Source: Candidatus Uhrbacteria bacterium (GTDB lineage Bacteria; Patescibacteriota; Patescibacteriia; UBA9934; GWF2-40-263). From it: a stretch of 64,000 bases of DNA. Positions 2,084 to 21,252 of this stretch are shown here, piece after piece (the stretch's first letter is position 1; the number at the start of each line of letters is the position of its first letter). Both the position numbers and the translations under genes were made by a program. Under the pieces are notes generated by a model, which ran no database searches, had not been told where the DNA came from, and saw only the letters and a program-made list of their open reading frames with translations. The stretch covers positions 81,527-145,526 of the forward strand of contig JAPLZK010000001.1 in assembly GCA_026395055.1 (NCBI GenBank), read 5' to 3'.

Positions 2084-2196
2084 AAATTTGGATTGAATTT
2101 CTGCGAAAGTGTAGCGAAAACATTCGTGGTTGTCAATTATGAGCCGGTCCCTTTTGAAAAGAAAAAGCACCCGAATGGTTCGGGTGCGAGGGAGAG

Positions 2197-4194
2197 CTAG
2201 CTGCGCTTGGCAGGCTTGCTCATGAGTTTTGCTGTGACTTCACCGGCCTTTTGATGCAGTTCGTTTTGCGTCGATTCCTTCGGGAGAAGGATGTGTGCAA
2301 TGCGAAGGGCGATTTCACGAAAGCAGAGGGCGTAGCGCGTTGCGACGGACGCCTGTTCGTACATGGGATGAGCGAAGTTGAGGGTGATCTTCGCGTAAGC
2401 ACTCAGCTCCTGGAGAATACTTGTGCAGGGATTCCCTGGAAGTTTCGAGGAGTCGAGTTCGAACACGCGACCTTCGTACACAAACGTGTCATCGATCGTG
2501 TTTGAGGTTCGCGTATTTGGCTCGTAATCCTTTTCCACATGAATCGCGCAGTTCGCTGCAATGCCTTCATGTTCCGTATCTGTGACGGTGACATCAAAGG
2601 TTCCTTCCATGGATCCCGTGATGATGCGTGCAGATGTTTTGTCTGGTGCAATCTCGAGTTTGCCATCCCACTTTGCAGGGGGAGTCCACACGAGTTTTGC
2701 ATTCTCCGGAACATGTTCCAGGCGAATGTGACGTTCTTGCTTGCAGTCGAGGTGCAGTGAGGTTTGGGTAAACCGCATCGGCAATCGATCCACAATCTTG
2801 ATGCTCACTTCCGCTTCTGGTGCATTGCGTACATCGCCCATGAGACGGACGACGAGTTTGAAGATGCCAAGTTTCTTTGCCGTGTAGACAACACGCGTTC
2901 CTGTGTTTGGCTCAAGCGAGCCTCCACAAGCACTCGTGTCCCACACGTAGCGTCCTTCCTTCGGATTCTTGATGGTGATCACGCAGGTTTCACCCGGCGT
3001 GAGTTCGATCCGTCCATGATCCAGTTCGATCTTCGCAACCGAATGACGAGACGGTTTTTCGCCTGTGCGATCATGGAGATCTTGGCACAGTTTTGCGATA
3101 AGCGTTTCGTCGTCCGTTGTCTTGATCTCATCGGATTTCATGCCAAGTTCGGCTTCGACCTTGGGGACGATTTCGATACGAAGGCACTCGAGCAGTTTCC
3201 TGCAGAGGACTTCGTCTTCAAGAAGTGAGCCTTTAAATCCGTCACGATCGTTCGTGACGTACTCCCTCTCGTTCAGAGAACTGATTTCAATCCGACCCAT
3301 CACCCACGGATGCCGAAGCACGTGTGTGATTTCGTTTGCAAGCAGACTGTAGCGCGCGTCTTTCAGAAACGGCGCAATGAATTGCTCCCATGCACACACA
3401 GGATTTGGCGAACTCACTTTGACAGGCAACAAATGCTTGTTGTCCGCAACGATGTCCAAGTTCCAGTGAATGTCTCCAAGCGGCTGCGGTCCGTGGAAGC
3501 TACCCTCAATGGGCTTTCCGATCGTCACGCGGGGCTTGAGGGGTTGTTCGACCCACTTTCCATTTTTCAAGTATCGCACGCGGACAATGCGTGCCATGTA
3601 GGGAGAGAGTCTGTCTGCCAGATTCTCAACCAGATACTCCGGTGTACGACACTTCTGTTCGTTCGGAGTTCCAACGTTGAGGTCAAACCAGGTGATGTAG
3701 CTTCCGGTCGTACGCAATTCTTTCGGAATTCCGACAGATACGGGGCTCCAAACCAGGGGCTTCCAACTATTCGGAACGTTTCGATCCGGGAACCAGGCAT
3801 CAATCATCGACGCTTCGGTAAGCGTAATGGAGTGCACACCCTCTTCCGGTGTCTTTGTGAAGGCTACACATTTCTGTCCGTGATGGATAAAGCCAAGGCG
3901 GCCGTTTCCATTTTGCCCATGCTTGTTTTTGTCTCCAAGCGATGTGCTCACACACAGTCCTGTATAGGCATCACGATGATGAACATCCATTCCACTTCCG
4001 TTATCGTAGAACGACACGCAGCGCTTGCCGTCTTGTTCGAAAAACGTGATGAGAATCTCTGATGCGTTTGCATCGACCGCGTTGCAAACGATTTGCTCAG
4101 CGGCCTTTGAAAACTCGATGAATCCGTCGAGAAGTTTCCGGAGAACCTTCCCTGCGACATGATTTCCGCGAACCTTCATTGCTGTTTGACTCAT
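2197..4194 (-). CDS. GHKL (Bergerat-fold) ATPase-domain protein, ~665 aa, unknown function
   Basis: N-terminal GHKL motifs are present: N-box EQIVCNAVDANASEI, G1 box DNGSGMD and G2 box GQNGNGRLG. A beta-rich middle region and helical C-terminus follow, with no MutL, gyrase or Hsp90 signature motifs. The start ATG at 4194 overlaps the upstream stop as ATGA. Confidence 0.7.
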   Translation of the reverse strand: MSQTAMKVRGNHVAGKVLRKLLDGFIEFSKAAEQIVCNAVDANASEILITFFEQDGKRCVSFYDNGSGMDVHHRDAYTGLCVSTSLGDKNKHGQNGNGRLGFIHHGQKCVAFTKTPEEGVHSITLTEASMIDAWFPDRNVPNSWKPLVWSPVSVGIPKELRTTGSYITWFDLNVGTPNEQKCRTPEYLVENLADRLSPYMARIVRVRYLKNGKWVEQPLKPRVTIGKPIEGSFHGPQPLGDIHWNLDIVADNKHLLPVKVSSPNPVCAWEQFIAPFLKDARYSLLANEITHVLRHPWVMGRIEISSLNEREYVTNDRDGFKGSLLEDEVLCRKLLECLRIEIVPKVEAELGMKSDEIKTTDDETLIAKLCQDLHDRTGEKPSRHSVAKIELDHGRIELTPGETCVITIKNPKEGRYVWDTSACGGSLEPNTGTRVVYTAKKLGIFKLVVRLMGDVRNAPEAEVSIKIVDRLPMRFTQTSLHLDCKQERHIRLEHVPENAKLVWTPPAKWDGKLEIAPDKTSARIITGSMEGTFDVTVTDTEHEGIAANCAIHVEKDYEPNTRTSNTIDDTFVYEGRVFELDSSKLPGNPCTSILQELSAYAKITLNFAHPMYEQASVATRYALCFREIALRIAHILLPKESTQNELHQKAGEVTAKLMSKPAKRS

Positions 4195-5702
4195 GTTCTC
4201 TGTACTCCCTTGAGGTGTGAGTTGATTTTTGCGGACTCCCGCATTCCCTCTGTGACCTGGCAAGCACCGTCGCTTGGCCAGAGATCTTTCATACCCTGAT
4301 GAGAAATGAGAAGTTCAAACAACTCATTTCCGATTTTCGGACCAACAATCTGTTTGAGGTATCGATGATCCAATTCACACACAAGCGTTAACGCTCCACG
4401 CAAGACCATAACAGCCTTTGTGAGTTGGTCGAGTTCTTGTGTCGTGAGCTTTTCACCAGGTCGAGGGTTGAATGTTTCTCGTGAGAGATGTTTCAACACA
4501 AGACCCGAAAGATCATGCACATTCGGATTCGATGGTTGGCCTTTGAGGCGCAACAATCGATCAAGTGTGAATTGCGCAATTTCAATTTGGGCATCAAGTA
4601 AAGCTTCCATCGAAGGAGGCCCCTCGGGTTTTTCCGTGGGTTCCTCGACGTGTTCTGTGACAGGCACCACAGGTTGATTGATGCGTGTTTCTCGCACGAC
4701 CTCCAGGATTGGTGGGGGTTTCTTAGCATGACTCCGTTTCGGTGGAGTTGCCTTTGCCAATTTTGGCGCAGGGTCTTCCGTCTTCACGATTTGAGGCACG
4801 GCTGGCTTGATTTGGACTTTGAGCGGATGGCTCACAGACCAGATTCCAGATTCTTCTGTGTCTCGATAGTGACGGAGGTTTTCATCAAATGCTTTTTTGA
4901 GCGCGGGCACGCGCTCGCAAACGATGACGCGCAAGATTTTTTCCATCGTTGCGACCGTAAAACGCTTGTCTTTTCCTTTCGGATTCCACCTCTTCAGGAG
5001 GGTGTAAACAATCTGTTTGTGCAGTCCGGTTTTTTCCGAGATGCGTGTGTCTGTGTTTCCAGGAAATGTTTTTAGAAACCATGCGGGCACATGTGTGAAC
5101 GATGGAATGTCTGGAAACAGTTCTTCTGGCTCGCAGCCGAAAATGGCACGGATCATCATGTCGAAGATCAAATCTTCCAGGCAGGTGACGGGTTTGAGCC
5201 CACCACACAACCCTTTCAGAATCGCGGGCAAAAATTCTTGGCTTGGGAGCCGAGCCGAAGCGCCTTCAATCGTCCAACGACAGAAGACACTTGGGGAAAT
5301 CTTGAAGGCGAGTGCCGTATACAGGTCATTGTCATAAGCTTCGCGCAAAATGTTTAGCTCAAGGACAATGTCTGACCGGTGAACGAGTTGATCATAGGAG
5401 ATGAATGCGCTCAGTTCTGGGTGATTCAGAAGCAGCTTTTGCTTTGCATCACACACCATCCAACCATCAATATCGATTCCCGTAAGGGCTTCGATCCGTT
5501 GTTTCTGCGAAGTCAAAAGATCATTTGTCGGCTTGTTTTCAAGCCAATCCGTCAAGTTTTTGAAGCCAACTCCGTTTTTGCGAAGAACTTCTTGTGCTTG
5601 CGGAATGGTTTTTAGGCCATTCAGTTCCATCCATTGTCGCCAGAGTCCCTCGAGGGAGGTGTCCGGGCCAAAGACAAGCGATTTCAATGACTTCGTTTTC
5701 AC
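4191..5702 (-). CDS. hypothetical protein (503 aa), partner of the GHKL ATPase
   Basis: Long ORF with a GTG start at 5702, preceded by AAGGAGGAAAC. It contains a Pro/Lys-rich linker (PAPKLAKATPPKRSHAKKPPP). Its stop TGA overlaps the downstream ATG, implying translational coupling. Confidence 0.55.
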   Translation of the reverse strand: MKTKSLKSLVFGPDTSLEGLWRQWMELNGLKTIPQAQEVLRKNGVGFKNLTDWLENKPTNDLLTSQKQRIEALTGIDIDGWMVCDAKQKLLLNHPELSAFISYDQLVHRSDIVLELNILREAYDNDLYTALAFKISPSVFCRWTIEGASARLPSQEFLPAILKGLCGGLKPVTCLEDLIFDMMIRAIFGCEPEELFPDIPSFTHVPAWFLKTFPGNTDTRISEKTGLHKQIVYTLLKRWNPKGKDKRFTVATMEKILRVIVCERVPALKKAFDENLRHYRDTEESGIWSVSHPLKVQIKPAVPQIVKTEDPAPKLAKATPPKRSHAKKPPPILEVVRETRINQPVVPVTEHVEEPTEKPEGPPSMEALLDAQIEIAQFTLDRLLRLKGQPSNPNVHDLSGLVLKHLSRETFNPRPGEKLTTQELDQLTKAVMVLRGALTLVCELDHRYLKQIVGPKIGNELFELLISHQGMKDLWPSDGACQVTEGMRESAKINSHLKGVQRT

Positions 5703-5784
5703 GTTTCCTCCTTGTAAAGGGCATCCACCAAACCGTAGGCGGAGAAACGATCCTAGCAAAGCAAAGGTCGAATGTCAAGGGAAT

Positions 5785-5813
5785 CTTGACAAAAAGAAGC
5801 GTTTTCATTAGAT
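5785..5813 (+). promoter_or_regulatory. sigma70-like promoter (TTGACA-17-TAGATT)
   Basis: ttgacaaaaagaagcgttttcattagatt sits about 38 nt upstream of the 5851 start, and GGGAGA lies before the ATG. Confidence 0.45.
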
Positions 5814-5850
5814 TGATCTCTTCCTATATTCAGGAAGACAGGGAGATTCG

Positions 5851-6621
5851 ATGCAACAGAGAGCGACAACATCAGAGACAACCGTTCTTGCAGCCGCAAT
5901 TCCGGCAAAAGATGCGAAAGTGATTCATTTGGGTGCCAAGCAGTTTCAGGTTTGGAAGGCGTTTCACGATGAGTGGATGAAGACGTCACAACCGATTTCT
6001 GCAGAGAGTGCCGAACGTTTGGTGCACAGTGTAATTCCCATGGTGAGCAATTGGTCGAGCGTGCTTTACGAACTCGAACAGAAAGGTGCGATGACCTCAA
6101 GTGAGGAATCAAGCCGCAAGTTTCGCACTCCTGTGACGAATGGGATTGTGATCACGAGCGGGTTCAAGAGTAATGAGCGTCAATGCTGGCCAGAGATTGC
6201 ATCCACGGGAACATCACCAAAACCGAAGAAACTCAAGTTGGTGCAGCCGGCACGAACGCCAGCGCCTGCTGTTGTGGTGCCGAACATTGTTTCGAAAGTT
6301 GCTCTGCAACAGCAACTTCAATCGAAGCAGGATGCATTGCAGACTGGTCTGAGGCGCTGCAAGCAAGATCGTATCGATAGTAAAACGCTTGAGCAGCAAA
6401 CTATTGCCGGTGAAATCGAGTCGATCGAGGAACAGATCACGGCTTTGCAGACACGACTTAGTGAAAAACTTGAACAGCACGAAACAGTTCGTGACACACT
6501 TGCAGAAATGTGTTCGCAGGAATGCACTTCAGAAGAAGCAGGTTTGCAGGATGTGGTCACGGAGATCGCAGACCTCGAATCTGCACTCAGGGTGTATGAC
6601 CGAATCGTTCAGCCGACTTAG
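5851..6621 (+). CDS. hypothetical protein with C-terminal coiled coil
   Basis: ORF of 256 aa with an upstream promoter and SD. The C-terminal third has heptad-like periodicity (IESIEEQITALQTRLSEKLEQ). A terminator follows. Confidence 0.5.
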   Translation: MQQRATTSETTVLAAAIPAKDAKVIHLGAKQFQVWKAFHDEWMKTSQPISAESAERLVHSVIPMVSNWSSVLYELEQKGAMTSSEESSRKFRTPVTNGIVITSGFKSNERQCWPEIASTGTSPKPKKLKLVQPARTPAPAVVVPNIVSKVALQQQLQSKQDALQTGLRRCKQDRIDSKTLEQQTIAGEIESIEEQITALQTRLSEKLEQHETVRDTLAEMCSQECTSEEAGLQDVVTEIADLESALRVYDRIVQPT

Positions 6622-6630
6622 AAGCCCTTA

Positions 6631-6658
6631 CCGCCGGATTTATTCCGACGGTTTTTTC
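6631..6658 (+). terminator. rho-independent terminator
   Basis: ccgccggatttattccgacgg hairpin followed by ttttttc. Confidence 0.5.
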
Positions 6659-6687
6659 TTTGTTTGTAATCTGTATTTACAAGATTT

Positions 6688-6717
6688 ACAAAAAGAAAAA
6701 ACATCGCGGATGCGATG
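6688..6717 (-). terminator. rho-independent terminator for the convergent minus-strand gene
   Basis: acatcgc-gga-gcgatgt hairpin, with a U-run on the minus strand (plus-strand aaaaagaaaaaa). Confidence 0.55.
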
Positions 6718-6718
6718 T

Positions 6719-8428
6719 TTAAGAGTCAGTGCCCGTCTGCTTGGGTTTGCGATTGCTGTTCAAGAGTTCCCAGTATTCACGTTTGCCACGCAGGATTTGT
6801 TCCATGACATTTTTCTTGTCATGGCAAAGAGCAAGATAAACTTCTGCCAGCTGACGCACTTCCTTGTGCGGAATCCAGCGCCAATGGTTTTTGTCGCGTT
6901 CGCGATCGAATGCCTTATAAAATTCTTCGTCCTTGCTATGATCTCCGTAAACAGATCCAGGAGCAAGGTTCGAGAATTCAATGAATGCGGTAAGCGATCG
7001 CATGGTTTTTGCTTTTCGCTTTGAGTCCACTGGATTGCAGACGTGTGCCGTGATGTAGAGCAGACGAAGTTCTGCTTCAAATGTTGTTGGTGCATCTGTG
7101 AACACATGCACGACAGGTTTTTCTGTCTCTGCGACGCGGATTTTTTTGTGTGGCTCAGGAACTTTCTCAAACAAACGCAAGAGTGCGTCTGGAAGTTTCG
7201 GATAGTCCGCCTGAAAGCGGAGCATGTTCTCGCGCTGTGTAAAGGATTCATCGTCTGCATTCAAAAGAGCCAGACGGTGTGCCGTCTCTTCCATTTGCAA
7301 ATGGATTTCAGCAGAAAGGCTGAGTTCGAATAGTTCACACGCTCCGCGAATACGTTCGCAACGCGTTCGAAGTTGCTCGAGTTGCTGTTCTGTTTCAAGA
7401 TACACGTTTTTGATTTCGTGAATCCGATCAATGCTGGTCCGCATGATTGTGTCGTGAGATCCAATCTGAAGGCGTTCCGCTTGCAGTTGTGAAAGAAGAG
7501 CTTCAAGCTTGCGTGCATCGTCTGTGTTTGGATGTTGCGTCATCGCACTCATCCAAACATCGAGGCGTGCGCGTCGCGTTGGTGCTTCTTCGATGAGCGC
7601 ATCGCACAACTGTTTGCGTGCATGGCGATGCTCTTGGTAGAGATCGCGTTCGCTTACAAACCGTTGATACTCCGCGCGTAAATTTCTTGGCAGTGCCACG
7701 GCGTCTTCGTAGACTTCGTGAATCAACTGTTGAATCCGCGTGAGGAGTGACGTGTCGCGTGATGGCGCGCCAGGTTTCGCAATTTGCTCAATTGCGTGAA
7801 GGGCATCGTTTGTCTCTCCTTCGGCAAGATGACGAAGCAGTTGAAGGACGTATTCTCCAGCGGGCTGTCCCGCAAGATTCATGTCTTCGGCAAGCTCTGC
7901 GAGATCGCGCAGGTCTGATGTGATGCCTGGCACGTCATCGCGTTCTTCTGCGACAAGGAGTGATTCCTTGAGCGTTTGAATTTCTGTACGAGCCTGCCCC
8001 AAATCGATTGTTGCCTGTGCGAGTTCTGTTGCGACACGCTGTTGTTCGGTGATCAAACGAGCACTCTCAGATTCTGTTTGAGCAAGTTGTGCCTGCATGG
8101 TTTGTTCTGTTTTACGAGAGGCAACCAAGCTTACACGTACTTTTTCGAGTTCCTCGGTTGCGACACGAGCCGCTTCCTCACTCGTCGCCTTTCCCTTCTG
8201 GAGAGAGGTAGTGCGAAGCGTGAGTGTTTCGATCTGTGTTTCAAGAGAAAGGAGTCGTTCTCGCTCTTGTTCTACGGCTTTGAGTTTTTCTCGTTCAAAG
8301 AACGAACGAGATGTTGGAACGAACGCGCCGGGCGCATGCGGAGTATCAAGTTCGATTGCGCGTAGTGGAAGCGACGCGTCGTTCAAGAGTGCCACAAGCG
8401 GCAGGCGAGGCTTTATTGCTGGTGCCAT
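6719..8428 (-). CDS. hypothetical long coiled-coil protein (~570 aa)
   Basis: ORF to 8512, with the likely start at 8428 (MAPAIKPRLP) preceded by AAGGGGAAAC. A central stretch of ~250 aa is Ala/Glu/Gln/Leu-rich and predicted coiled coil. No recognisable catalytic motif. Confidence 0.5.
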   Translation of the reverse strand: MAPAIKPRLPLVALLNDASLPLRAIELDTPHAPGAFVPTSRSFFEREKLKAVEQERERLLSLETQIETLTLRTTSLQKGKATSEEAARVATEELEKVRVSLVASRKTEQTMQAQLAQTESESARLITEQQRVATELAQATIDLGQARTEIQTLKESLLVAEERDDVPGITSDLRDLAELAEDMNLAGQPAGEYVLQLLRHLAEGETNDALHAIEQIAKPGAPSRDTSLLTRIQQLIHEVYEDAVALPRNLRAEYQRFVSERDLYQEHRHARKQLCDALIEEAPTRRARLDVWMSAMTQHPNTDDARKLEALLSQLQAERLQIGSHDTIMRTSIDRIHEIKNVYLETEQQLEQLRTRCERIRGACELFELSLSAEIHLQMEETAHRLALLNADDESFTQRENMLRFQADYPKLPDALLRLFEKVPEPHKKIRVAETEKPVVHVFTDAPTTFEAELRLLYITAHVCNPVDSKRKAKTMRSLTAFIEFSNLAPGSVYGDHSKDEEFYKAFDRERDKNHWRWIPHKEVRQLAEVYLALCHDKKNVMEQILRGKREYWELLNSNRKPKQTGTDS

Positions 8429-8514
8429 GTTTCCCCTTTTGTTGAAAGCCAGAGAGCGAGCGTAGCAAAAGAAATGCGTTCCGTCAAGATATCGTAATAA
8501 AAAAACCGCCACTC

Positions 8515-9345
8515 TTAGGGAGTTGCGGTGAGATAGTTGGATGTGTGATCCAAAGCATATTTTGGCAACGTGCGCTTTTGCCGGTCTTTCTTTGCTCGTT
8601 CAATCAGGTCAATGATTTCTGCGAGCGACAAGCAACGAACAAGATCTGGTTCCGACGCAAGCTGTGCCGCACTCCATTGTTTGAGGACGCCGGATTGCAG
8701 GAGCTCAATCCAATCATCCATACGTTCTGCCCCGTGTGCCTTTGCTAGTGCGAAGATGGTATTGATTTCGATATTGCATTCCTGCGCATACGCAACAAGG
8801 CGCAGACAGCGACATGGTGAAATGGTTGCCTGCATCTCGGTCAAGAGTTTCACGGTGTTCGTGAAGACAAAAGAGGTGAGACGCATTGTTGTCGTGGTCG
8901 AATTTGGTTCACACGCAAGATGTGTTCCAATGAGTTCCATGAGCCGCTCGTATCGCTCCAAAAATTGATCATGCAGACGACCCTTGAGCCCGTCTTTTTT
9001 TCCTGGATTGTCGAACGTCAGCAACTGTTCTTCGCAGAAGCGAATACATGTAGCGGCATCTTCGGGTGTTGCGAAAACAACATCATGTTTTTCTGCAAGC
9101 AAGAGTTGTTCCACCCACACCATTCCACGAATGTGTGTTCTTGAAACAAAAATCTTTGCGTAGAAACCGGATGCAGGTACTTCTGGATAGAGTTCATCGA
9201 AACGCTCGAGAATGAGTCGCAAGCGACCCCATTCATCTTTTCCAAGACTTTTGATAAATGTCTCTTCTGGTTGTGTGAACTGAATCCATGTTCGAAGAGC
9301 TTGGTTCCGTTCTTTCTTTTTCATTCCGTCCTGAATTTTTGCCAT
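8515..9345 (-). CDS. hypothetical protein (276 aa)
   Basis: Clean ORF with GGGGGA before the ATG. It sits directly upstream of the coiled-coil gene and is probably co-transcribed with it. No recognisable motifs. Confidence 0.5.
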   Translation of the reverse strand: MAKIQDGMKKKERNQALRTWIQFTQPEETFIKSLGKDEWGRLRLILERFDELYPEVPASGFYAKIFVSRTHIRGMVWVEQLLLAEKHDVVFATPEDAATCIRFCEEQLLTFDNPGKKDGLKGRLHDQFLERYERLMELIGTHLACEPNSTTTTMRLTSFVFTNTVKLLTEMQATISPCRCLRLVAYAQECNIEINTIFALAKAHGAERMDDWIELLQSGVLKQWSAAQLASEPDLVRCLSLAEIIDLIERAKKDRQKRTLPKYALDHTSNYLTATP

Positions 9346-9440
9346 GCAATCCCCCTTGAAGCTGAGGGGGCATCATGGGCGAGAATTGACGTTTTGTCAA
9401 GAGTTTGATAGATTCTTCCCTCGCTTGCATAAGGAGAATC

Positions 9441-10439
9441 ATGGACGTTACGTATAATTATCCTGCGAAAAATACGGTGCGAAGTGCGTGGATGGAATTT
9501 CTTCCTGACACCTTCGTGCAATCAGACTCAGGGCTTTATTTGCCTGGACACGAAAACTTGGAACTCGCGGCGTATCTTGAGAAAGGACTCGTTCCTAAAC
9601 AGATGGTCGGAGTGGAACAAGATCCGCTTTTGATTGATCATGTTCGAGAGAATGCCCAAGGGACGTTGATCGTTCATGGGAATGTCACAAGTGCTGTCCA
9701 GTATATTGAGCAAACGCAGACCACAAATTTGCGATTCGCAAATCTGGATCTTTCCAACTCGTACAGAGATTCGATCGAACAAATCTTATCACTGTTTCGT
9801 GTGTTCCCTTCTTCACAAGGTGGATATCTTGCGGTCACAAGCTATAGTGCTCGTGACAATGAGACCCTTACAGAAGGTGTGATCAATACGAGTAAGTTTT
9901 TTTCCGTTGTGAAATCTCAGGAACAATTCTTTGGACCATATGGTCAGATGCTGAATCGGTATCGTGCCATGCACGGAACATGGAATCGTTCGGAAAAAAA
10001 TAAGCATACGCATCTGACGCGCACGCTTGGATTTCTTTGGTGGATTGGTCTTGTGCTTGGGTCTGTTCGTAAGGCGCGTACCGGAAGGTATGTGATAGAC
10101 GAATTGTATCTTTCACAAATCAAAAGCGAGATTGATGCCATCAGTGAAGAGGCGAGACTTCTTGTAGAAGGAGATCGCAACTTTCATCTTGTGCGAAACA
10201 AATCGCTCGGAAAACTTTTTGCGAAACGTAGAAGCGAACTTGTGCCTACGCGACTTCAACAATTCATTCATCTGTCTCGGCGATCTCAGCCAATGCAGAC
10301 ATGGATGCTCCACATTGCGCCAATGACCGGCGCACAAAAACCCACGCACCAAGAGGTGATTGGGGATCTCTGGCAGCTCATGACTCACGGAACGCTCGTC
10401 ATGGTCGACGAGTCTGGAACGCGAGTCACAACAACGTAA
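9441..10439 (+). CDS. hypothetical protein (333 aa)
   Basis: ORF from 9405, with the likely start at 9441 (MDVTYNYP) after AAGGAG. It has weak Rossmann-like features (VGVEQDPLLIDHV) that are not diagnostic. Confidence 0.5.
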   Translation: MDVTYNYPAKNTVRSAWMEFLPDTFVQSDSGLYLPGHENLELAAYLEKGLVPKQMVGVEQDPLLIDHVRENAQGTLIVHGNVTSAVQYIEQTQTTNLRFANLDLSNSYRDSIEQILSLFRVFPSSQGGYLAVTSYSARDNETLTEGVINTSKFFSVVKSQEQFFGPYGQMLNRYRAMHGTWNRSEKNKHTHLTRTLGFLWWIGLVLGSVRKARTGRYVIDELYLSQIKSEIDAISEEARLLVEGDRNFHLVRNKSLGKLFAKRRSELVPTRLQQFIHLSRRSQPMQTWMLHIAPMTGAQKPTHQEVIGDLWQLMTHGTLVMVDESGTRVTTT

Positions 10440-10448
10440 GGAGAATGC

Positions 10449-11126
10449 ATGCGTATTGCAAGATGGCTCATTGAGGGGGGAAAAGCTCTCGTCGAACTTG
10501 GAGATCACTTATTCATGCAACAAGCGCGACTCGATTCGCTTGGTGCGCGTAAGGAACCCCCGAAAGAAAAAGGGGAATATACGGAAGCCGTCGTTGATGC
10601 GCTGATCGCATCACGCGCAGAAAGTTCTGATGAGGATTGGTTGCGCACGGGTGGCCGGCGTGATCAAGAATGTGTACGTTACGGCATTACGCGAGAGCAA
10701 GTTGCGGGAATTCTCGCAGCTGGAACGAAACGTGAAAAGAAAAGCGGTAGTGGGAATGTTCCTGCGCCCGTCGCGCCCCCGTTCGATGATCGCGCAGCAA
10801 GCACACTCTCTTCTCCGGTTGCAAAGACGGGGGAAAAGAATGAACGCAACATGTTTGATGCAAAAGAATGGGGGGAGGTGACGCTCGAGCCGAATGGTGC
10901 GCGTGATCAGATTCCTTTGAAGCCGTTTCGTGACGCGACAGAGGATGACAAAAAGATTGTGGTGCTTGTGTACGTTCAGTGCAAGGCACACGAGAAGGAT
11001 TGGAGCGAGATGCGTCAGCAGCTCTGTTGTACGCGTCGACTGACGCGTCAGCAGGTTGCCGCAATCGTGGCAGAACACACCAGACAGGAAAACAAAAAGT
11101 TTGCGTCGCAAGCCGCACACGCCTAA
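10449..11126 (+). CDS. hypothetical protein with an internally duplicated motif
   Basis: AAGGAG lies before the ATG, 9 nt after the previous gene. The motif C[VT]R..[IL]TR[EQ]QVA[GA]I[LV]A occurs twice, at about aa 75-92 and aa 195-212. Confidence 0.5.
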   Translation: MRIARWLIEGGKALVELGDHLFMQQARLDSLGARKEPPKEKGEYTEAVVDALIASRAESSDEDWLRTGGRRDQECVRYGITREQVAGILAAGTKREKKSGSGNVPAPVAPPFDDRAASTLSSPVAKTGEKNERNMFDAKEWGEVTLEPNGARDQIPLKPFRDATEDDKKIVVLVYVQCKAHEKDWSEMRQQLCCTRRLTRQQVAAIVAEHTRQENKKFASQAAHA

Positions 11127-11133
11127 GACCCTT

Positions 11134-11167
11134 ATCGCCTTCGAAAACTTCGAGGCGATTTTTTTAT
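11134..11167 (+). terminator. rho-independent terminator
   Basis: atcgccttcgaaaacttcgaggcgat hairpin followed by tttttta. Confidence 0.6.
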
Positions 11168-11217
11168 TCGCAACAAAAAAATCGACCCACAGAGTGTGAA
11201 TCGATCTTCTTTTTTAT

Positions 11218-13209
11218 CTAGACGAGGAATCCAACGATGAGCAATGCCACAATGTTCAAAATTTTGATCATTGGGTTGATGGCTGGTCCCGCTGTGTCTT
11301 TGTATGGATCTCCTACGGTGTCTCCGGTGACCGCCGCCTTGTGAGCGTTGGATCCTTTTCCGCCGTAGTTTCCAAGTTCAATATATTTCTTTGCGTTGTC
11401 CCAAGCTCCTCCACCGGTTGTCATAGAGATTGCCATGAACAAACCTGTGACGATCGAACCAATCAAGAGTCCGCCAAGAGCTTTTGGTCCAAAGGCGAAT
11501 CCGACAACGATTGGAGCAAACACGGCGAGCAAGGAAGGAGCGATCATGAAATTGATCGCAGCTTTTGTCACAATGTCTACAGCTTTTGCGTAGTCAGGTT
11601 TTCCGGTTCCATCCATGATTCCTGGAATCTCACGGAACTGACGACGTACTTCATCAACAACAGATCCTGCAGCTTTTCCAACAGCTTCCATGGCGAGGGC
11701 TGCGAATAAGTAGGTGACGATCCCTCCAAGGAATAATCCAGCAAGAACATATGGGTCGCTCACTTCGAATACAACCAATGATCCTTTTGCCGCAAGCGCA
11801 TGCACGTAGTCTCCAAAGAGAACAACAGTTGCGAGTCCGGCAGAACCAATGGCATATGCCTTTGTCACAGCTTTTGTTGTGTTTCCAACCGCATCGAGTG
11901 GGTCTGTGATGTTACGAACGTCTTCTCCAAGATCTGCCATTTCTGCGATTCCACCTGCATTGTCTGTAATTGGACCAAAGGCGTCAATCGCAACAACGAT
12001 TCCTGTTAGAGACAACATGGCCATTGCGGCGATTGCAACTCCGTAAAGTCCAGAGAGAGAGTTTGCGATCAAAATTCCAAAGACGATTGTAAGAACAGGA
12101 AGAGCGGTTGATTTCATGGAAAGACCAAGTCCTGCAATGATGTTTGTTCCGTGTCCAGATTCAGAAGCGGCTGCAAGGTCTTTTACAGGTTGATGATTTG
12201 TTCCTGTGTAATATTCTGTAATCAGAATCAAGGCTGCGGTAATAACGAGTCCAAGAAGTGCAGAGTAATACACGTTCATGGTGTTCAAACCCGCAATGTT
12301 TGCGAGCATATACTTTGTGACAGGGTAAAAACCAATGGCAGCAAGAGCGCCCGCAACAAACAATCCTTTATAAAGTGCGTTCATGATGTTTCCATCTTTC
12401 CCGATCTTGATAAAGAAAGTTCCAACAATTGAACACACGATGGCAATCGCTCCAAGAGCGATTGGGTAAATGACAACTTGTGCGTTGTTTGCAAACAAGA
12501 GGGATCCAAGCAACATGGCTGCAACAGATGTTACAGCATATGTTTCGAATAAGTCCGCAGCCATTCCTGCACAGTCTCCAACGTTGTCTCCAACGTTGTC
12601 TGCGATAACCGCTGGGTTGCGTGGGTCGTCTTCAGGGATTCCTGCTTCTGTTTTTCCAACCAAGTCCGCACCAACGTCTGCAGCTTTGGTAAAAATTCCT
12701 CCACCCAAACGAGCAAAGACAGAAATAAGAGATCCTCCAAATCCGAGTCCAACGAGTGCGTGGACATCATGTGTCATCATGTAAAAAAGGGTGACTCCAA
12801 GAAGCGCGAGTCCAACAACGAAAAATCCTGTCACAACGCCTCCGCGTACGGCGACGTCCATGGCAGCAGAAAGTCCGCTTTTTGCTGCTTCAGTTGTGCG
12901 TACGTTTGCACGTACAGAAACAGACATTCCAATATAACCCGCAACTCCCGAAAGGACTGCTCCTACCAAGAATCCAATTGCGAGGGTCCATCCTAATGCG
13001 AATCCAAGGATAAGGAAGACAACCGCTCCGATCATGGCGATCATTTTATATTGACGCGCCATGTATGCATTCGCTCCTTCTTGGATCGCAAGCGCGATTC
13101 CTTTCATTTTTCCTTCTCCGGCCGGGAGCTTCAAAATCCATTGAGTAAGATAGGCTCCATAAATGAGGGCAAGCAAGCTCGCCCCGATCGCGTACATCGA
13201 AATATTCAT
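11218..13209 (-). CDS. hppA: membrane-bound proton/sodium-translocating pyrophosphatase (V-PPase)
   Basis: A 663-aa polytopic membrane protein carrying the signature [22 protein letters not shown] and conserved [19 protein letters not shown]. Confidence 0.9.
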
Positions 13210-17726: not shown

Positions 17727-18998
17727 CTACTTACAGAGACGAATTGTTGTTGATAACAATCCAGATCTTAAACCAATACTAGAGAAATTTTGTGCAAAGA
17801 GAAGGATCGCGCTGTTGTTTACGGAATTTGTGTGTTGATTTTGCATATCTACAAGCGGTTTAAGTACTATGCCCGCATTTTTTCCCCCGCAAATTTTTGT
17901 ATTTGATTTATTTTGGCCTTTAAATGCACGAAATAACTCTTCGCGGTTTGTGAGAAAGATTTCATTATTTTTTGTGTAGCCAGCAAGTAGGATGCCGTCA
18001 CTTGTTTGAATACGATCTACTTGAATTCCAAGCAGCGTCACCTCCTCGACAGAAATATTTTCAGGGTTTGCGATGATTTCTTTGATTGAGGTGCCGTCTT
18101 CTAAAACCGTTTCTTGTATTTTTGGGGAGTTTAGAGCTGAAATGGAACGAAGAGTCTGCGCGAAATCAATCTTATGTGTTTCTGTGCGTTGAATGGCTGT
18201 CAGAAAAAAACCGACTCCCTGTGAATCCTTTGTGAGGATAAGTTGGCTTTGGTTTTCCGGAAGATTTGCAAGTTCATTCAAAAATGGTGAATCTACAACA
18301 GATTTCATGAGTGGAAGAAAAGGATCGAGAAAATCCTTTGTTGTGTTTGGCAAGATTGGAGTAGACAAATAAGCGATTGTGTCTTTTGGAATCTGCTTAA
18401 ACGCATTTCCTGTTGGATGCACGCCCGGAACCGTGATGTCTAAATGATCTTTTGATGCATAAAGAAAAGATCTGTGCGGTTGTGTGCTATCAACCAGTTC
18501 GCCAATCCAACGATGACCAGGAAAAGAAATACCCGGTATGATTTTAGGTGAAATATTTAATGGCTTCAAAACTTCTTCTTTTTCAGAAAGTAAAATAATT
18601 CCGTGACCAATTGATTGGGTGCTAATAGATTGAGAATCCAATAATTTTTGTGGAAGTTGTTTGTTTCCTTCTCGAATCGCTATGGATTGTGATCCGTCAT
18701 TCTTCAAAAAAAGAACAAACTCCCCAGAGATATATGGAGCTAAATCAGAAAATGTGAGTGCTCGATGTGAAATAAGGGGAACATGGTTTGTAAATGCTTC
18801 AACATCTGTTCCTTTTTGACCACCGACAAACAGGCGAATGGCCATGACGGTGTTTTCTGGCGCAGCTTGATAAATGGTATCTCGTGTAAACCAAAGAGTG
18901 CTTCCCCAGGAGATGATGGTTATGATGCTTGATACACACACCACCAGAAGCCAAACAACCCACCGAGTACGGCGGGTTGTTTTGGAACTTCTAGACAT
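17727..18998 (-). CDS. hypothetical membrane-anchored protein
   Basis: The ORF extends to 19088, which would overlap pnp. The likely start is MSRSSKTTRRTRWVVWLLVV, a signal anchor. It lies downstream of pnp on the same strand. Confidence 0.5.
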   Translation of the reverse strand: MSRSSKTTRRTRWVVWLLVVCVSSIITIISWGSTLWFTRDTIYQAAPENTVMAIRLFVGGQKGTDVEAFTNHVPLISHRALTFSDLAPYISGEFVLFLKNDGSQSIAIREGNKQLPQKLLDSQSISTQSIGHGIILLSEKEEVLKPLNISPKIIPGISFPGHRWIGELVDSTQPHRSFLYASKDHLDITVPGVHPTGNAFKQIPKDTIAYLSTPILPNTTKDFLDPFLPLMKSVVDSPFLNELANLPENQSQLILTKDSQGVGFFLTAIQRTETHKIDFAQTLRSISALNSPKIQETVLEDGTSIKEIIANPENISVEEVTLLGIQVDRIQTSDGILLAGYTKNNEIFLTNREELFRAFKGQNKSNTKICGGKNAGIVLKPLVDMQNQHTNSVNNSAILLFAQNFSSIGLRSGLLSTTIRLCK

Positions 18999-19005
18999 GG
19001 GAATA

Positions 19006-21252
19006 TTAAGATGTTGCATTCTTTTTGAAGAATGGTCGCTTTGGACGATCCATTGACCCTCCGGCTGATGGAGGTTTAGATGCGCCACCCGCGCCTGGAG
19101 CTGGTCGTTCTGGGTAAACGTTTCCTGGGGCTTCTTTCATGGAAAGGCTAATCTTTCCGTCCGGATTGATTTCCATAACCTTTACAAAAACCACTTGGCC
19201 CATTTTTACAATATCCGTTACATTTTCAACACGCCACGGTGCCATGTTGCTTACGTGAACCATTCCGTCTTTTTTCGGTAAGAATTCAACGATAGCTCCA
19301 AAGTCCATAACACGCACGACTTTCCCTTGGTAGATTTCTCCAACCTTGGCTTCTCGTGTGAGAGATTCGATCCAGGCTTTTGCTTGATCGGCTCCGTTTG
19401 AGTCTTTGGACGTAATCATGACGAGACCGTCTTCCTCAATATCAATTGCTTGAACACCCGTTGTTGCAATGATTTCATTGATCATCTTTCCGCCTGGACC
19501 AATCACGCTTCCAATGGATTCTGGATTGATGCGAAGGGTGATGATGCGTGGTGCGTAAGGAGAAAGATCAGGACGTGGAGCAGAAATGGTTGCCTCCATG
19601 ACGTCGAGAATCTTCATGCGCGCAATGCGCGCTTGGTTTACGGCTTGCGTCACAATTTCGCGTGAAAGTCCTTTTGTTTTTGTATCCATTTGAATTGCGG
19701 TGATTCCGGATCGGGATCCAGCAATCTTGAAGTCCATTCCACCTTTACCGTCTTCCAGGTCTTGAAGATCGGTTAAGACTTTGAATCCTCCCACATCATT
19801 GGACGCAAGTCCCATTGCGATTCCAGCAACCGCGGCTTTGATTGGGACTCCTGCATCCATGAGCGCGAGGGTTGAACCACACGTGGATGCCATAGAACTT
19901 GATCCATTAGATCCGAAGACTTCAGATACGGCACGAACGGTGTAAGGAAACGCTTCTTTGTCTGGCATCATTCCGCGTAATGCTTTCTCGGCGAGTCCGC
20001 CGTGTCCGATATCGCGACGTGATGGTCCGCGAAGCGGTTTTACTTCTCCAACGGAGAATGGAGGAAAGTTGTAATGGTGGAAGAAACGTTTCTTTCCAAC
20101 GGTTTCCATGCCGTCCAATGTTTGTTCGTCGCCAGGTGCGCCGAGGGTGATGGTTGTCAAAACTTGTGTTTCTCCGCGCATGAAGTGTCCGGTTCCGTGA
20201 ATGCGTGGAAGAAGTTGAACTTCTGCAAGGAGTGTACGAATTTCGTTTAACGCACGGCCATCGACACGTTTGCCATCTTCGATCACGGCGCGCGTGAGTT
20301 CGTCTTCTAAGACAGTAATGACAATGTCTGTTCCGTATTTAATTTGATCCTTCTCAATTCCCTTTTCAGCAAGGAATTGTTTTGTGCGCGCTTTTAGTTC
20401 TGATTTTTGTGCGGCACGTTCTCCTTTTGTTGCTTGTGGTGCTTTAAAGAAGAGTTCTTTTACTTGTTCGAGGATATATGGGCGAACCATGTCCTCGACA
20501 GTCTTGCGAGCAACAAGGATTGCCTTTTCTTCATCTGTTTTTGGAGAAAGAATATCTACTTTTGTTTTTCCTGCAGCTTTTACGACTTGGTCGATAAGTT
20601 GCATGGGTTCTTTCAAGTTTTTTTGTCCAAACCAGAACGCTTCCAAGACAACATCTTCTGCCGCTTCATTTGCTCCCGCTTCCACCATGATGATGGATTC
20701 CGTTGTTCCGGCAAATGCGAGATCAAGAAGTGATTTCTCACGCGCTTCATAGCTTGGGTTTAAAACCCATTCGCCATCTACTTGTCCAACGCGTACACAT
20801 CCGATTGGTCCGTCCCATGGAATGTCAGACATCGCGAGTGCACAGCTTCCACCAATGAGTCCCAAAACATCTGGATCATTTTCGCCATCAAACGCGAGAC
20901 AGGTGACAATCACTTGAATGTCATTGCGAATGCGATCATCAAACAATGGGCGCAGGGCGCGATCAATAAATCGTGCGGTGAGAATTGCTTCGTCTGTTGG
21001 ACGACCTTCTGTTTTCATGAAACGTGAACCTTTGATGCGACCAGCCGCATACAATTTTTCTTCGTAATCTACCATGAGGGGAAGATAATCGATTCCATCA
21101 CGCTTGTTTGAACTAAGTGTTGCGGTCGCGAGAATCACCGTGTCTCCGTATTGCACCATACAAGCTCCGTTTGCTTGTGCGGCATATTTGCCAACTTCAA
21201 TGGATAAGGTTTTTCCGCCCCATTGCGTTTCAAATTTCTGAATCTTGTTCAT
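19006..21252 (-). CDS. pnp: polynucleotide phosphorylase/polyadenylase
   Basis: 748 aa with two RNase PH domains, KH (GPGGKMINEI) and a C-terminal S1 domain. The N-terminus is MNKIQKFETQWGGKTLSIEVGK. Confidence 0.95.
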   Translation of the reverse strand: MNKIQKFETQWGGKTLSIEVGKYAAQANGACMVQYGDTVILATATLSSNKRDGIDYLPLMVDYEEKLYAAGRIKGSRFMKTEGRPTDEAILTARFIDRALRPLFDDRIRNDIQVIVTCLAFDGENDPDVLGLIGGSCALAMSDIPWDGPIGCVRVGQVDGEWVLNPSYEAREKSLLDLAFAGTTESIIMVEAGANEAAEDVVLEAFWFGQKNLKEPMQLIDQVVKAAGKTKVDILSPKTDEEKAILVARKTVEDMVRPYILEQVKELFFKAPQATKGERAAQKSELKARTKQFLAEKGIEKDQIKYGTDIVITVLEDELTRAVIEDGKRVDGRALNEIRTLLAEVQLLPRIHGTGHFMRGETQVLTTITLGAPGDEQTLDGMETVGKKRFFHHYNFPPFSVGEVKPLRGPSRRDIGHGGLAEKALRGMMPDKEAFPYTVRAVSEVFGSNGSSSMASTCGSTLALMDAGVPIKAAVAGIAMGLASNDVGGFKVLTDLQDLEDGKGGMDFKIAGSRSGITAIQMDTKTKGLSREIVTQAVNQARIARMKILDVMEATISAPRPDLSPYAPRIITLRINPESIGSVIGPGGKMINEIIATTGVQAIDIEEDGLVMITSKDSNGADQAKAWIESLTREAKVGEIYQGKVVRVMDFGAIVEFLPKKDGMVHVSNMAPWRVENVTDIVKMGQVVFVKVMEINPDGKISLSMKEAPGNVYPERPAPGAGGASKPPSAGGSMDRPKRPFFKKNATS

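Follow-up and report, generated by a model that had tools for sequence, protein, structure and literature searches.

A GHKL ATPase gene and its dedicated partner in an exchangeable cassette of Candidatus Uhrbacteria: a possible MORC-like genome-conflict system

We characterized two overlapping open reading frames on the minus strand of a Candidatus Uhrbacteria contig, within a stretch of 64,000 nucleotides (contig JAPLZK010000001.1, positions 81,527 to 145,526) that we call the window and by which all coordinates are numbered. The GHKL frame spans 2197-4263 when read from a TTG and 2197-4194 when read from an ATG (665 aa); the partner frame spans 4191-5759 from a TTG and 4191-5702 from a GTG (503 aa). 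Ortholog alignments back the start sites of both genes. They agree with the original prediction of an ATGA overlap between the genes, which is seen in the sequence, and of a partner GTG start behind a Shine-Dalgarno sequence: AAGGAGGA ends 3 nt ahead of that GTG (5702-5700), and an SD-like GGGAG lies 10 nt 5' of the GHKL ATG. The features of this operon are as follows.

5750..5778, minus strand: promoter-like site TTGACA-17-TAGGAT, TG-extended, 5' of the partner gene (consensus scan)
5706..5713, minus strand: Shine-Dalgarno sequence AAGGAGGA of the partner gene (read from the sequence)
4191..5702, minus strand: partner gene, 503 aa, GTG start, first in the bicistronic operon (ORF call and orthologs)
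4191..4194, minus strand: ATGA stop/start overlap, translational coupling (sequence)
2197..4194, minus strand: GHKL ATPase gene, 665 aa (ORF call, Pfam and homologs)
2167..2187, minus strand: intrinsic-terminator-like hairpin, 9-bp stem with 6 GC, T tract, 10 nt past the GHKL stop

The promoter-like site is well positioned, in a region where such sites are no more numerous than shuffled expectation in the consensus scan, and the hairpin, terminator-like in its sequence, probably ends the bicistronic operon. Both frames are genuine genes rather than chance ORFs, since full-length homologs at 28-86% identity are found in many metagenomes.

The GHKL protein could be divided into five segments.

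3685..4164, minus strand: Bergerat-fold ATP-binding domain, aa 11-170 (Pfam HATPase_c_3, PDB profile search)
3280..3684, minus strand: transducer-like alpha/beta domain, aa 171-305, with basic R222 and G300 conserved
3055..3279, minus strand: helical linker, aa 306-380 (AF2 helices at 328-350 and 362-377)
2515..3027, minus strand: two Ig-like beta-sandwich domains, aa ~390-560
2215..2493, minus strand: C-terminal beta-hairpins and helical hairpin, aa 568-660, motif N606-x-x-H609-P610 (AF2 model, conservation counts)

HATPase_c_3 matches aa 27-118 with 37 bits (gathering score 25, E 4e-9; Pfam), and all four Mg-ATP-binding motifs by which the GHKL superfamily is recognized are present: motif I as Q34xxxN38xxD41, II as D64xGxG68, III as G93xxG96xG98 and IV as T163-G164-S165. 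The original prediction of a Bergerat-fold N-terminus thus stands together with the motifs quoted for it, except that the quoted glutamate, E33, is one residue off register and not conserved. The general-base Glu sits four residues ahead of the N-box Asn, as in MORC2 (E35) and MutL (E29). At this position the window copy has Gln, as do P0002-P0005, so that it lacks the catalytic glutamate; Q34 aligns with MORC2 E35, and N38 with MORC2 N39. In MORC2, E35A is hydrolysis-dead and N39A binding-dead (PMC11879086). In a PDB profile search the nearest solved structures were MORC2 (E 2.3e-7), MORC3 (9e-5) and PMS1 (1.4e-4). Downstream, the predicted Ig-like segment and helical tail were recovered as a tandem of Ig-like domains followed by a helical C-terminus, whose modelled end (aa 568-660) is a putative site of constitutive dimerisation or partner binding. 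The protein had also been said to lack the signatures of other GHKL families; no full-length match to MutL, GyrB/ParE, Hsp90, Topo VI-B or histidine kinases was found by Pfam, NCBIfam or PDB profile search, but a transducer-like domain is present.

Neither gene is the ORFan it was first taken for, because a large CPR-wide GHKL family exists, and the partner has orthologs as well. An exhaustive HMMER search gave at least 137 full-length 50%-cluster representatives of the GHKL protein, and the family is common in Parcubacteria. All named representatives are Uhrbacteria or Parcubacteria, to which the cassette described below appears to be restricted, a taxonomic limit drawn from only four named clusters. 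Residues N38, D64, G66, G68, G93 and G98 are retained in 127-136 of the 137 representatives, and position 222 is R or K in 115. The catalytic position is E in 84 representatives and Q in 52, with the two variants intermixed on the family dendrogram.

The partner protein consists of three regions.

4848..5702, minus strand: N-terminal region, aa 1-285, all helical and variable between lineages, holding up to three HTH-like modules of XRE/Cro-like type
4614..4847, minus strand: Pro/Lys-rich disordered linker, aa 286-363 (pLDDT <50 over aa 282-363)
4194..4613, minus strand: C-terminal helical domain, aa 364-503, conserved GHKL-associated module (profile matches)

As expected of a true pair, each of the 13 lineages fetched has a gene with the C-terminal domain that overlaps or directly adjoins the GHKL start; in 12 of them the two genes overlap or lie no more than 13 nt apart. 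Across these lineages the C-terminal helical domain (~100 aa) is constant while the N-terminus differs. Its profile matches the gene immediately preceding GHKL in lineages L017, L018, L019, L020 and L021 (E 1e-5 to 1e-10); the corresponding L015 gene gives a weak match over most of its length (E 2.6e-5) and a phmmer link to the partner family. The L020 partner, only 149 aa long, consists entirely of this domain. An 11-lineage alignment defines the motif G[VI]R[FH]xLT...LRRR...LGxE[LV]xEL...R...G, and the domain has no PDB sequence match. Partner orthologs are 25-36% identical among the Uhrbacteria loci, and the linker, Pro/Lys-rich as originally described, aligns poorly and is Pro-rich in all of them. 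The partner had been described as having no recognisable domain; nevertheless, weak convergent signs, all sub-threshold, suggest XRE-type helix-turn-helix modules in its N-terminus. Internal-repeat tests were negative (hhalign probability <6%). Foldseek gave no match for the partner, whose model is of low confidence (pLDDT 60).

The pair was proposed to be a two-component unit. It is indeed a dedicated and conserved pair, but it lies in a cassette of seven genes, of which g344 co-occurs widely and four more complete the set.

2085..11201, no strand assigned: whole inserted cassette, 7 genes, ~9.1 kb, from the H+-PPase stop to the tig start (nucleotide comparison)
5851..6621, plus strand: g256, putative winged-helix N-terminus and C-terminal coiled coil, divergent from the partner gene (orthologs)
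6719..8512, minus strand: g597, long helical/coiled-coil protein, C-terminal half conserved (orthologs 22-28% identical)
8515..9345, minus strand: g276, variable cassette gene (relative in L009)
9405..10439, plus strand: g344, Rossmann-like, perhaps methyltransferase-like protein, third widely co-occurring component (homologs near GHKL)
10449..11126, plus strand: g225, small cassette gene with an allele-swap breakpoint inside, at 10514 (62% identical to L012)

Homologs of g344 occur in every full Uhrbacteria cassette and in five of seven deep lineages; they adjoin GHKL in L015 (E 3e-42), L017 (2e-19), L019 (3e-5) and L021 (8e-8, as a domain within a 598-aa protein), and none was found in the flanking sequence available for L018 and L020. 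Residues K22, G48, E53, E71, D115, T145, R206 and G209 are invariant. The strand/helix pattern fits a class I SAM-dependent methyltransferase, with E71 and D115 among the invariant residues and the Gly-rich SAM loop absent; the sole family hint is a sub-threshold match of the L019 homolog to Methyltransf_24 (E 0.023), and there is no PDB sequence match. Orthologs of g256 are present in L001, L004, L006, L009 and L012; that of L001 is matched weakly by the TrmB wHTH (E 0.016), and the C-terminus gives only weak coiled-coil-type matches (SMC, JetC, LmuB). For g597 no domain was found with Pfam, PADLOC, NCBIfam or PHROGs. The only relative of g276 is a repeated segment of an 855-aa protein in L009, and a 290-aa gene at its position in L001 showed no link to it in searches. 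No cassette gene or ortholog carries a nuclease, helicase or other effector domain, and PADLOC, Pfam, NCBIfam and PHROGs named no family beyond the GHKL fold.

Comparison with related genomes delimits the cassette sharply at the DNA level. In L025/L026 only 19 nt separate the PPase stop from the tig ATG, and homology between the window and L025 breaks off at 2084 and returns at 11202; with L022 it returns at 11159. The cassette is absent from L022 (tig 88% identical, PPase 92%), L024 (tig 81%), L025/26 (67%), L032 (58%) and L030/31 (40%), and lineages with and without it interleave. The site is differently filled in some close relatives; L032 holds an ORF with a DGLQR motif. Against L012/L023, nucleotide homology is lost at 2118 and regained at 10514, within g225: tig and PPase of L012 are 86% and 96% identical to those of the window, but GHKL and partner only 44% and 35%, whereas L012 and L011 are about equally similar in tig (75%) and GHKL (74%). 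Cassette GC is 0.492, a modest deviation from the 0.455 of the remaining window that another window region equals; GC3 is atypical, at 0.45-0.57 compared with 0.34-0.44 for housekeeping genes. Even in lineages whose tig identity is as low as 55-60%, the same gene set occupies the same site. We found no integrase, transposase, replication or structural gene in the cassette, no flanking direct repeats and no tRNA at the site. The recurrence of one gene set at one site without marks of integration points to exchange by homologous recombination rather than site-specific integration. Distant lineages carry the cassette in unrelated genomic contexts, and genes of toxin-antitoxin or defence type are found no more than 10 kb away in L015 (MazE/PIN), L019 (GmrSD_N/HNH, AAA_13) and L020 (HepT/MNT, Zeta-like).

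The most likely role of the cassette is genome defence or silencing, not housekeeping. Prokaryotic MORC/paraMORC proteins are encoded chiefly in restriction-modification and defence settings (PMC2292703), and a GHKL-nuclease, Shedu, protects Vibrio (PMC12137116). An affinity with MORC/paraMORC-type conflict systems had been suspected from the start; the hotspot and the allele swap speak for it, and the failure to find a nuclease, helicase or other effector domain in any cassette gene speaks against. Tentatively, and at somewhat less than even confidence, we propose that these two genes form the core of a hitherto undescribed, horizontally exchangeable CPR accessory cassette, a nuclease-free genome-conflict system of MORC/paraMORC-like kind acting in defence or silencing. 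Residence in a hotspot also fits other accessory functions.

Four other explanations were weighed. Because MORC/paraMORC operons usually pair with methylases and nucleases (PMC2292703), the cassette might be a methylation-linked restriction system of paraMORC type, in which g344 is a DNA methyltransferase, a hidden nuclease cuts unmodified DNA and the GHKL protein loops DNA between sites. The methyltransferase-like pattern of g344 and its Methyltransf_24 match would fit, and g276, g597 and the large neighbours in L018-L021, none with an assigned fold, could hide such an enzyme. However, the lack of the SAM loop in g344, its absence from the available L018 and L020 flanks and the failure to detect a nuclease or SFII helicase signature in the cassette genes make this unlikely. 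We consider it rather less probable still that the cassette is a housekeeping module for nucleoid or chromosome organisation, a lineage-specific MORC/SMCHD1-like device compacting the cell's own chromosome near the origin. In Uhrbacteria it does lie 3-5 kb from rnpA-rpmH-dnaA-dnaN, it combines HTH-like, winged-helix and coiled-coil proteins with a clamp-like ATPase and no nuclease, and the family is widespread among Parcubacteria. Yet it is missing from close relatives such as L022 and L025/26, a 44%-identical allele has been swapped in between flanks 86-96% identical, and its context shifts in distant lineages, all of which is unexpected of essential chromosome machinery. Quite improbable, too, is an origin from a degenerate integrated mobile element, a plasmid or prophage remnant landing repeatedly between PPase and tig, for which the genes would serve maintenance, partition or exclusion. 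Sharp borders, atypical GC3, DNA-binding-like genes and the toxin-antitoxin genes near the cassette in other lineages are island-like, but besides the missing mobility genes, repeats and tRNA and the constancy of gene set and site, searches found no relatives of GHKL or g344 in IMG/VR viral contigs, nor any relatives in GenBank phages. We give very little credence to an Hsp90/sacsin-like protein-remodelling chaperone with a dedicated co-chaperone, whose Ig-like domains and partner would bind protein clients instead of DNA. The Hsp90 likeness of the window protein is structural only and equal to its likeness to MORC and MutL; its middle and C-terminal domains differ from those of GRP94, HtpG and TRAP1, and it sits in a mobile, DNA-related genomic setting.

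For the preferred conflict system a mechanism can be sketched, on the precedent of MORC2, an ATP-gated clamp that entraps circular DNA (PMC11879086). ATP binding would dimerise the GHKL heads, the C-terminal helices would join the other end, and the Ig-like arms might encircle DNA in the fashion of MORC and SMCHD1. The partner could dock onto the ATPase through its C-terminal domain and select DNA through its variable N-terminal HTH-like modules, while g344 and the winged-helix and coiled-coil proteins may mark, sense or scaffold the target. With Q34 in place of the general-base Glu, the window copy would form a slow or non-hydrolysing, long-lived clamp, and invading DNA would be compacted or occluded, not cut. 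Whether this amounts to a nuclease-free, CPR-specific class of immunity or silencing, with a MORC-like ATP-gated clamp loaded by an adaptor with swappable DNA-reading heads to trap or compact foreign DNA, and with Glu-to-Gln variants arisen repeatedly, we regard as doubtful though worth stating. If true, the repeated natural 'hydrolysis-dead' variants would imply that the effector step is clamp closure rather than ATP turnover, and the cassette would be a prokaryotic functional counterpart to eukaryotic MORC/SMCHD1 silencing.

Among known systems, the housekeeping GHKL families were set aside first. The MutL equivalogs of NCBIfam reach 12-18 bits, below their cut-offs of 180-840 (TIGR00585: 17.8 bits against 180, over aa 36-71 only), and unlike MutL/PMS1/MLH1 the protein has no C-terminal dimerisation/endonuclease domain and a partner that is neither MutS nor MutH. 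Hsp90/HtpG gave no family match in Pfam or PDB profile search, GyrB/ParE and Topo VI-B no full-length match, and the histidine kinase profile PF02518 reached 18.5 bits against a cut-off of 26.4, with no HisKA. PADLOC returned no significant system match, in keeping with the original view that the pair resembled no nameable system: the window protein resembles MzaB over aa 30-114 only (E 0.013), and over 60 GHKL members the best matches were TmtA (8.3e-5; 8 members) and MzaB (2.3e-4; 7 members). The MzaB and TmtA anti-phage systems were rejected on these non-significant, minority matches and on the absence of their other components from the cassette. The likeness to SMCHD1 lies in the ATPase module, in a protein about one-third its size that lacks the SMC hinge and UBL domain. 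With paraMORC1-5 and GHKL-Shedu (paraMORC3, VcSduA) the window family shares a prokaryotic GHKL+transducer-like architecture, mobile conflict-type neighbourhoods and an accessory, patchy distribution (PMC2292703, PMC12137116). Those systems are, however, defined by linked or fused nucleases (DUF4263 PD-(D/E)xK, HNH, RE-fold), helicases and methylases, none of which was detected here; among cassette genes and orthologs there is no helicase or nuclease match, and a weak methyltransferase hint in g344 only. The MORC-specific S5 motif GhXhhpXXRhl (PMC2292703) is not reproduced either; the nearest stretch, G300-R-I-E-I-S-S-L-N (family consensus G-x-I-D-h-P-x-L-N-(R), with D or E at the fourth position), is offset by one residue and its Arg is not conserved. 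Compared with MORC, the window protein also lacks the CW domain, the coiled-coil insert and a linked SFII helicase or nuclease, has Gln for the general-base Glu (as do 52 of 137 representatives), and ends in two Ig-like domains and a helical hairpin. By ATPase sequence, MORC2/3/4 are nonetheless its closest relatives of solved structure, followed in the PDB profile search by PMS1 and MutL.

The partner and GHKL genes lie on the minus strand, and their lengths, the GTG start with its Shine-Dalgarno sequence and the ATGA overlap were found in the ORF listing and the sequence as the original prediction had described them.

Features of the partner-GHKL operon (window coordinates)
5778-5750, minus strand: promoter-like site before the partner gene
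5706-5713, minus strand: Shine-Dalgarno sequence AAGGAGGA of the partner gene, with the GTG start 3 nt after it
4191-5702, minus strand: partner gene, 503 aa, GTG start
10 nt upstream of the GHKL ATG, minus strand: SD-like GGGAG of the GHKL gene
4191-4194, minus strand: ATGA stop/start overlap of partner and GHKL
2197-4194, minus strand: GHKL gene, 665 aa, ATG start
2187-2167, minus strand: strong terminator-like hairpin after the GHKL gene

The promoter-like site and the hairpin mark the two ends of a bicistronic operon, although neither type of signal is over-represented in the region. The exact window proteins are named Candidatus Uhrbacteria in NCBI (Candidate Phyla Radiation, CPR; metagenome-assembled contig), and because full-length homologs of both exist elsewhere, we regard both as real genes.

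The domain order of the GHKL protein and its low scores against NCBIfam MutL models (12-18 bits; cut-offs 180-840) place it in the MORC/MutL/Hsp90 class, among the GHKL ATPases with a transducer-like domain. Pfam HATPase_c_3 matched aa 27-118 with 37 bits (gathering threshold 25). In an AlphaFold2 model (pLDDT 74.5), a Bergerat fold reaching to about aa 170 is followed by an alpha/beta transducer-like domain (about aa 171-305), a helical linker, two Ig-like sandwiches (about aa 390-560), a small beta-hairpin region and a C-terminal helical hairpin (aa 617-658). The transducer-like domain contains R222, a position occupied by R or K in 115 of the 137 sequences of the family alignment, and G300, kept in 131. 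The Ig-like beta segment and helical tail foreseen beyond the Bergerat fold are thus both seen in the model. In line with the earlier reading, the protein belongs neither to MutL nor to the topoisomerase ATPases, Hsp90 or the histidine kinases. The aa ~390-560 repeat is also carried, in 11-23 Ig-like copies, by giant proteins of 1600-5500 aa from the family searches (P0060, P0075, P0083, P0090, P0102 and P0127), so this repeat family is common to large multi-repeat-looking proteins. In the C-terminal beta-hairpin/helix region (aa 568-665, window 2197-2493) the sole conserved polar motif is N606-x-x-H609-P610, its named residues being kept in 108, 91 and 81 of 137 representatives, respectively. 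A cryptic nuclease at this C-terminus, proposed from a beta-beta-alpha topology and the N606xxH609P motif, was not adopted because fold and family matches sought for the region gave none.

All four ATP-binding motifs are kept in the family, both in an 8-homolog alignment and in the 137-sequence family alignment. N38 is retained in 136/137 sequences, and the other conserved ATP-binding residues are D41, D64, G66, G68, G93, G96, G98 and T163-G164-[TS]165. The best PDB sequence in a profile search was MORC2 (E 2.3e-7), followed by MORC3/4, PMS1 and MutL; N38 pairs with MORC2 N39, and E35, the general base of MORC2, corresponds to Gln (Q34) in the window protein. MORC2 E35A is without ATPase activity and N39A has been described as ATP-binding deficient (PMC11879086). 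Among family representatives, position 34 is Glu in 84/137 and Gln in 52/137, with the ATP-binding residues conserved throughout. Since the two types are intermixed on an identity dendrogram, the switch is one that recurred many times on a background of unchanged binding residues.

A word-indexed search recovered 8 GHKL and 4 partner relatives, and the partner alignment as query gave the same four proteins again and no others. An exhaustive HMMER search with the GHKL alignment returned 2115 proteins at E <= 1e-3 (212 at E <= 1e-10), from which filtering left at least 137 full-length (600-730 aa) representatives of 50%-identity clusters. With a family of this size, and full-length homologs of both genes, the description of the pair as ORFans had to be abandoned. 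The named clusters, few in number, are Candidatus Uhrbacteria or 'Parcubacteria group', and close-family patterns matched in only three GTDB species representatives. Pfam, NCBIfam, PHROGs and PADLOC 2023 had no name for the family beyond the ATPase fold, and searches of the accessible literature found no prior description of it. Two loci, L013 and L014 (CAYMBX010000008.1 and CAYRYG010000013.1), are titled 'uncultured Gammaproteobacteria bacterium', yet their genes are ordered as in Uhrbacteria (PPase-cassette-tig-rnpA-dnaA) and include a GHKL gene of the CPR family; judging by this gene content, the label is likely wrong.

The pairing proved to be conserved across genomes. A same-strand gene lies directly upstream of GHKL in 13/13 lineages examined, close and distant, and in 12/13 it overlaps the GHKL start or ends at most 13 nt away (the gap in L015 is 113 nt). 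These upstream genes range from 149 to ~500 aa and share the C-terminal domain: in distant lineages the Uhrbacteria-partner profile matches only the C-terminal ~100-140 residues (L020, E 1e-10; L017, E 1e-9; L019, E 7e-7; L018, E 2e-6; L021, E 3e-5). The L020 partner is this domain alone, and the 481-aa upstream gene of L015 matches the profile weakly over most of its length (E 2.6e-5), with a phmmer link to the partner family. The domain (aa 364-503 in the window) is helical, with a recurring LT...LRRR...ExxEL...R...G pattern in an 11-lineage alignment, and a PDB profile search with it retrieved no sequence relative. The N-terminal ~285 residues of the window partner are lineage-specific and all-helical in a weak model (4-sequence alignment, pLDDT 60). 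Convergent, sub-threshold matches (YdaS_toxin, 2.4e-4; HTH_3, 0.009; P22_Cro, 0.028; XRE protein 3bs3, E 0.031) suggest that they could hold up to three XRE/Cro helix-turn-helix-like units; an internal-repeat test of the three modules gave hhalign probabilities below 6%, and a Foldseek search with the partner gave no match. No match to the partner rose above threshold, consistent with its earlier description as lacking a recognisable domain.

Seven unannotated genes, GHKL, partner, g256, g597, g276, g344 and g225, lie between tig (791-2083/2170) and the H+-pyrophosphatase (PPase) gene (11218-13209). The pair had been placed in an ORFan block beside housekeeping genes; the seven unannotated genes and the tig/PPase flanks bear this out, but orthologs of all but g276 occur with unchanged gene order at other Uhrbacteria loci. 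g344 also stands beside GHKL in the distant lineages L015, L017, L019 and L021, so the recurrent core is the partner C-terminal domain, GHKL and g344. g344 has a Rossmann-like alternation and a D-x-x-G-S-Y stretch, its E71 and D115 are invariant, and PDB profile searches with it found nothing; fold assignments for it and for the partner are weak. There is a hint in g256 orthologs of a possible winged-helix N-terminus (TrmB, E 0.016) followed by a coiled coil, and g597 is a long helical protein. The longest tig ORF (791-2170) begins at GTG 2170; because homologs align only from residue 30 (ATG 2083-2085) and there is a promoter-like site (2136-2108) between these starts, the real tig start is probably 2085.

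The PPase-tig junction is polymorphic among relatives, as revealed by a metagenome scan anchored on tig, with window proteins mapped onto the matches.

State of the PPase-tig site in relatives (identities to the window)
L025/L026: tig 67%; site empty, 19 nt from PPase stop to tig ATG
L030/L031: tig 40%; cassette absent
L022: tig 88%, PPase 92%; a single gene of 638 aa, unrelated
L024: tig 81%; homolog (478 aa) of the gene in L022, immediately upstream of tig
L032: tig 58%; GC-rich stretch with a DGLQR-motif ORF
L012 (= L023): tig 86%, PPase 96%; cassette with GHKL 44%, partner 35%, g344 45% and g597 28%

Compared with L011, L012 is 75% identical in tig and 74% in GHKL; this contrast means that the cassettes of the window and of its nearest neighbour are not vertical counterparts. 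Nucleotide identity to L012/L023 (~81-83%) ends at window 2118 and restarts at 10514 inside g225, identity to L022 restarts at 11159, and the insert relative to the empty site is 2085-11201. GC3 is 0.45-0.57 in the cassette versus 0.34-0.44 in the surrounding housekeeping genes. A vertically inherited, merely fast-evolving block, as the synteny of L001-L014 had suggested, was ruled out once the scan had shown that close relatives lack the block, that its phylogeny is incongruent and that its DNA breakpoints are sharp. No repeats, direct or inverted, of a kind suggesting site-specific insertion were found to flank the locus, and the simplest mechanism would be exchange by homologous recombination in the conserved flanks. 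In other lineages the module occupies different genomic contexts, often with toxin-antitoxin or defence-type genes within 10 kb (MazE/PIN in L015; GmrSD_N/HNH and AAA_13 in L019; HepT/MNT and a Zeta-like gene in L020).

Several further observations concern this site and its surroundings. The single gene at L022:7975-9891 (-) and L024:39-1475 (-) encodes a protein that is Pro-rich in its middle part and has a coiled coil at its C-terminus, and a homolog (phmmer E 1.2e-20) lies at L015:5426-6904 (+), beside PPase in a rearranged GHKL cassette; the gene is perhaps an additional component, separable from the others, or a remnant. The 368-aa DGLQR ORF (L032:738-1844, +), in GC-rich sequence with overlapping ORFs on both strands, is reminiscent of DUF262/ParB-like (GmrSD/DndB-type) proteins. 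PPase also lies within ~5-7 kb of GHKL in distant L015 (3290-5290) and L021 (18644-20755), perhaps as a remnant of synteny or because the hotspot is recurrent. Window ~31500-39900 (GC 0.493, as high as in the cassette), which contains an SBP+VWA protein (32948-34720) and, at 36822-37880, an ORF lacking a Pfam match, might be another accessory region. A 453-aa ORF, also without a Pfam match, lies at 17727-19088 (-), immediately downstream of the PNPase gene (19006-21252), with ~80 nt of overlap.

The best-supported reading is a genome-conflict role, favoured because the cassette is patchily present, has hyper-divergent alleles with sharp borders and atypical codon composition, and encodes an ATPase of the MORC/paraMORC radiation. 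Most prokaryotic MORC/paraMORC members are encoded in operons for restriction-modification or defence (PMC2292703), and GHKL-Shedu is a defence system by experiment (PMC12137116). It is unlikely that the cassette is a methylation-linked restriction system of the classical kind whose nuclease went unrecognised; the sole family hint for g344, which lacks a Gly-rich loop, is Methyltransf_24 (E 0.023), and a search of the cassette genes detected neither a nuclease or helicase nor any other effector family. We consider a housekeeping nucleoid organiser quite improbable, and the presence/absence data weigh most against it. A mobile-element maintenance module is a decidedly improbable explanation; no integrase genes, tRNA genes or Rfam elements were found at the locus, and searches of IMG/VR viral contigs and GenBank phages found no GHKL or g344 relatives. 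An Hsp90-like chaperone pair is very improbable.

MORC2 is an ATP-gated, doubly dimerised clamp that entraps circular DNA (PMC11879086). By analogy, in a genome-conflict role the partner would bring a GHKL dimer to target DNA, the heads would close around the DNA on ATP binding, and the closed state would be long-lived in Q-type proteins, the window copy included. Only the identity of the domains, the linkage of the genes and the behaviour of the locus are observed; every further step of this mechanism is our inference.

Much of bacterial diversity belongs to the CPR/Patescibacteria. This large family comes from a branch of the bacterial tree that is poorly understood, its function is a predicted one, and the cassette occupies ~9 kb of a small CPR genome. 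Should the cassette prove to be a conflict system, it would represent a MORC-type machine working without a recognisable nuclease, and would bear on how prokaryotic MORC relatives act and on the origin of eukaryotic MORC/SMCHD1 silencing. Because the catalytic base has changed from E to Q repeatedly in nature, the need for hydrolysis could be tested on ready-made variants, and the PPase-tig site gives a definite hotspot, open to alignment, in which more accessory systems of Uhrbacteria can be sought.

Compared with MORC/paraMORC, the cassette clearly uses the same engine. However, the defining motif was not found in the GHKL protein, nor the defining gene linkage in the cassette, which has no recognisable nuclease or helicase. 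Instead, it has a dedicated adaptor with a conserved, putative docking-type domain and variable, putative DNA-reading heads, and its GHKL family is distinguished by Ig-like arms and recurrent loss of the catalytic base.
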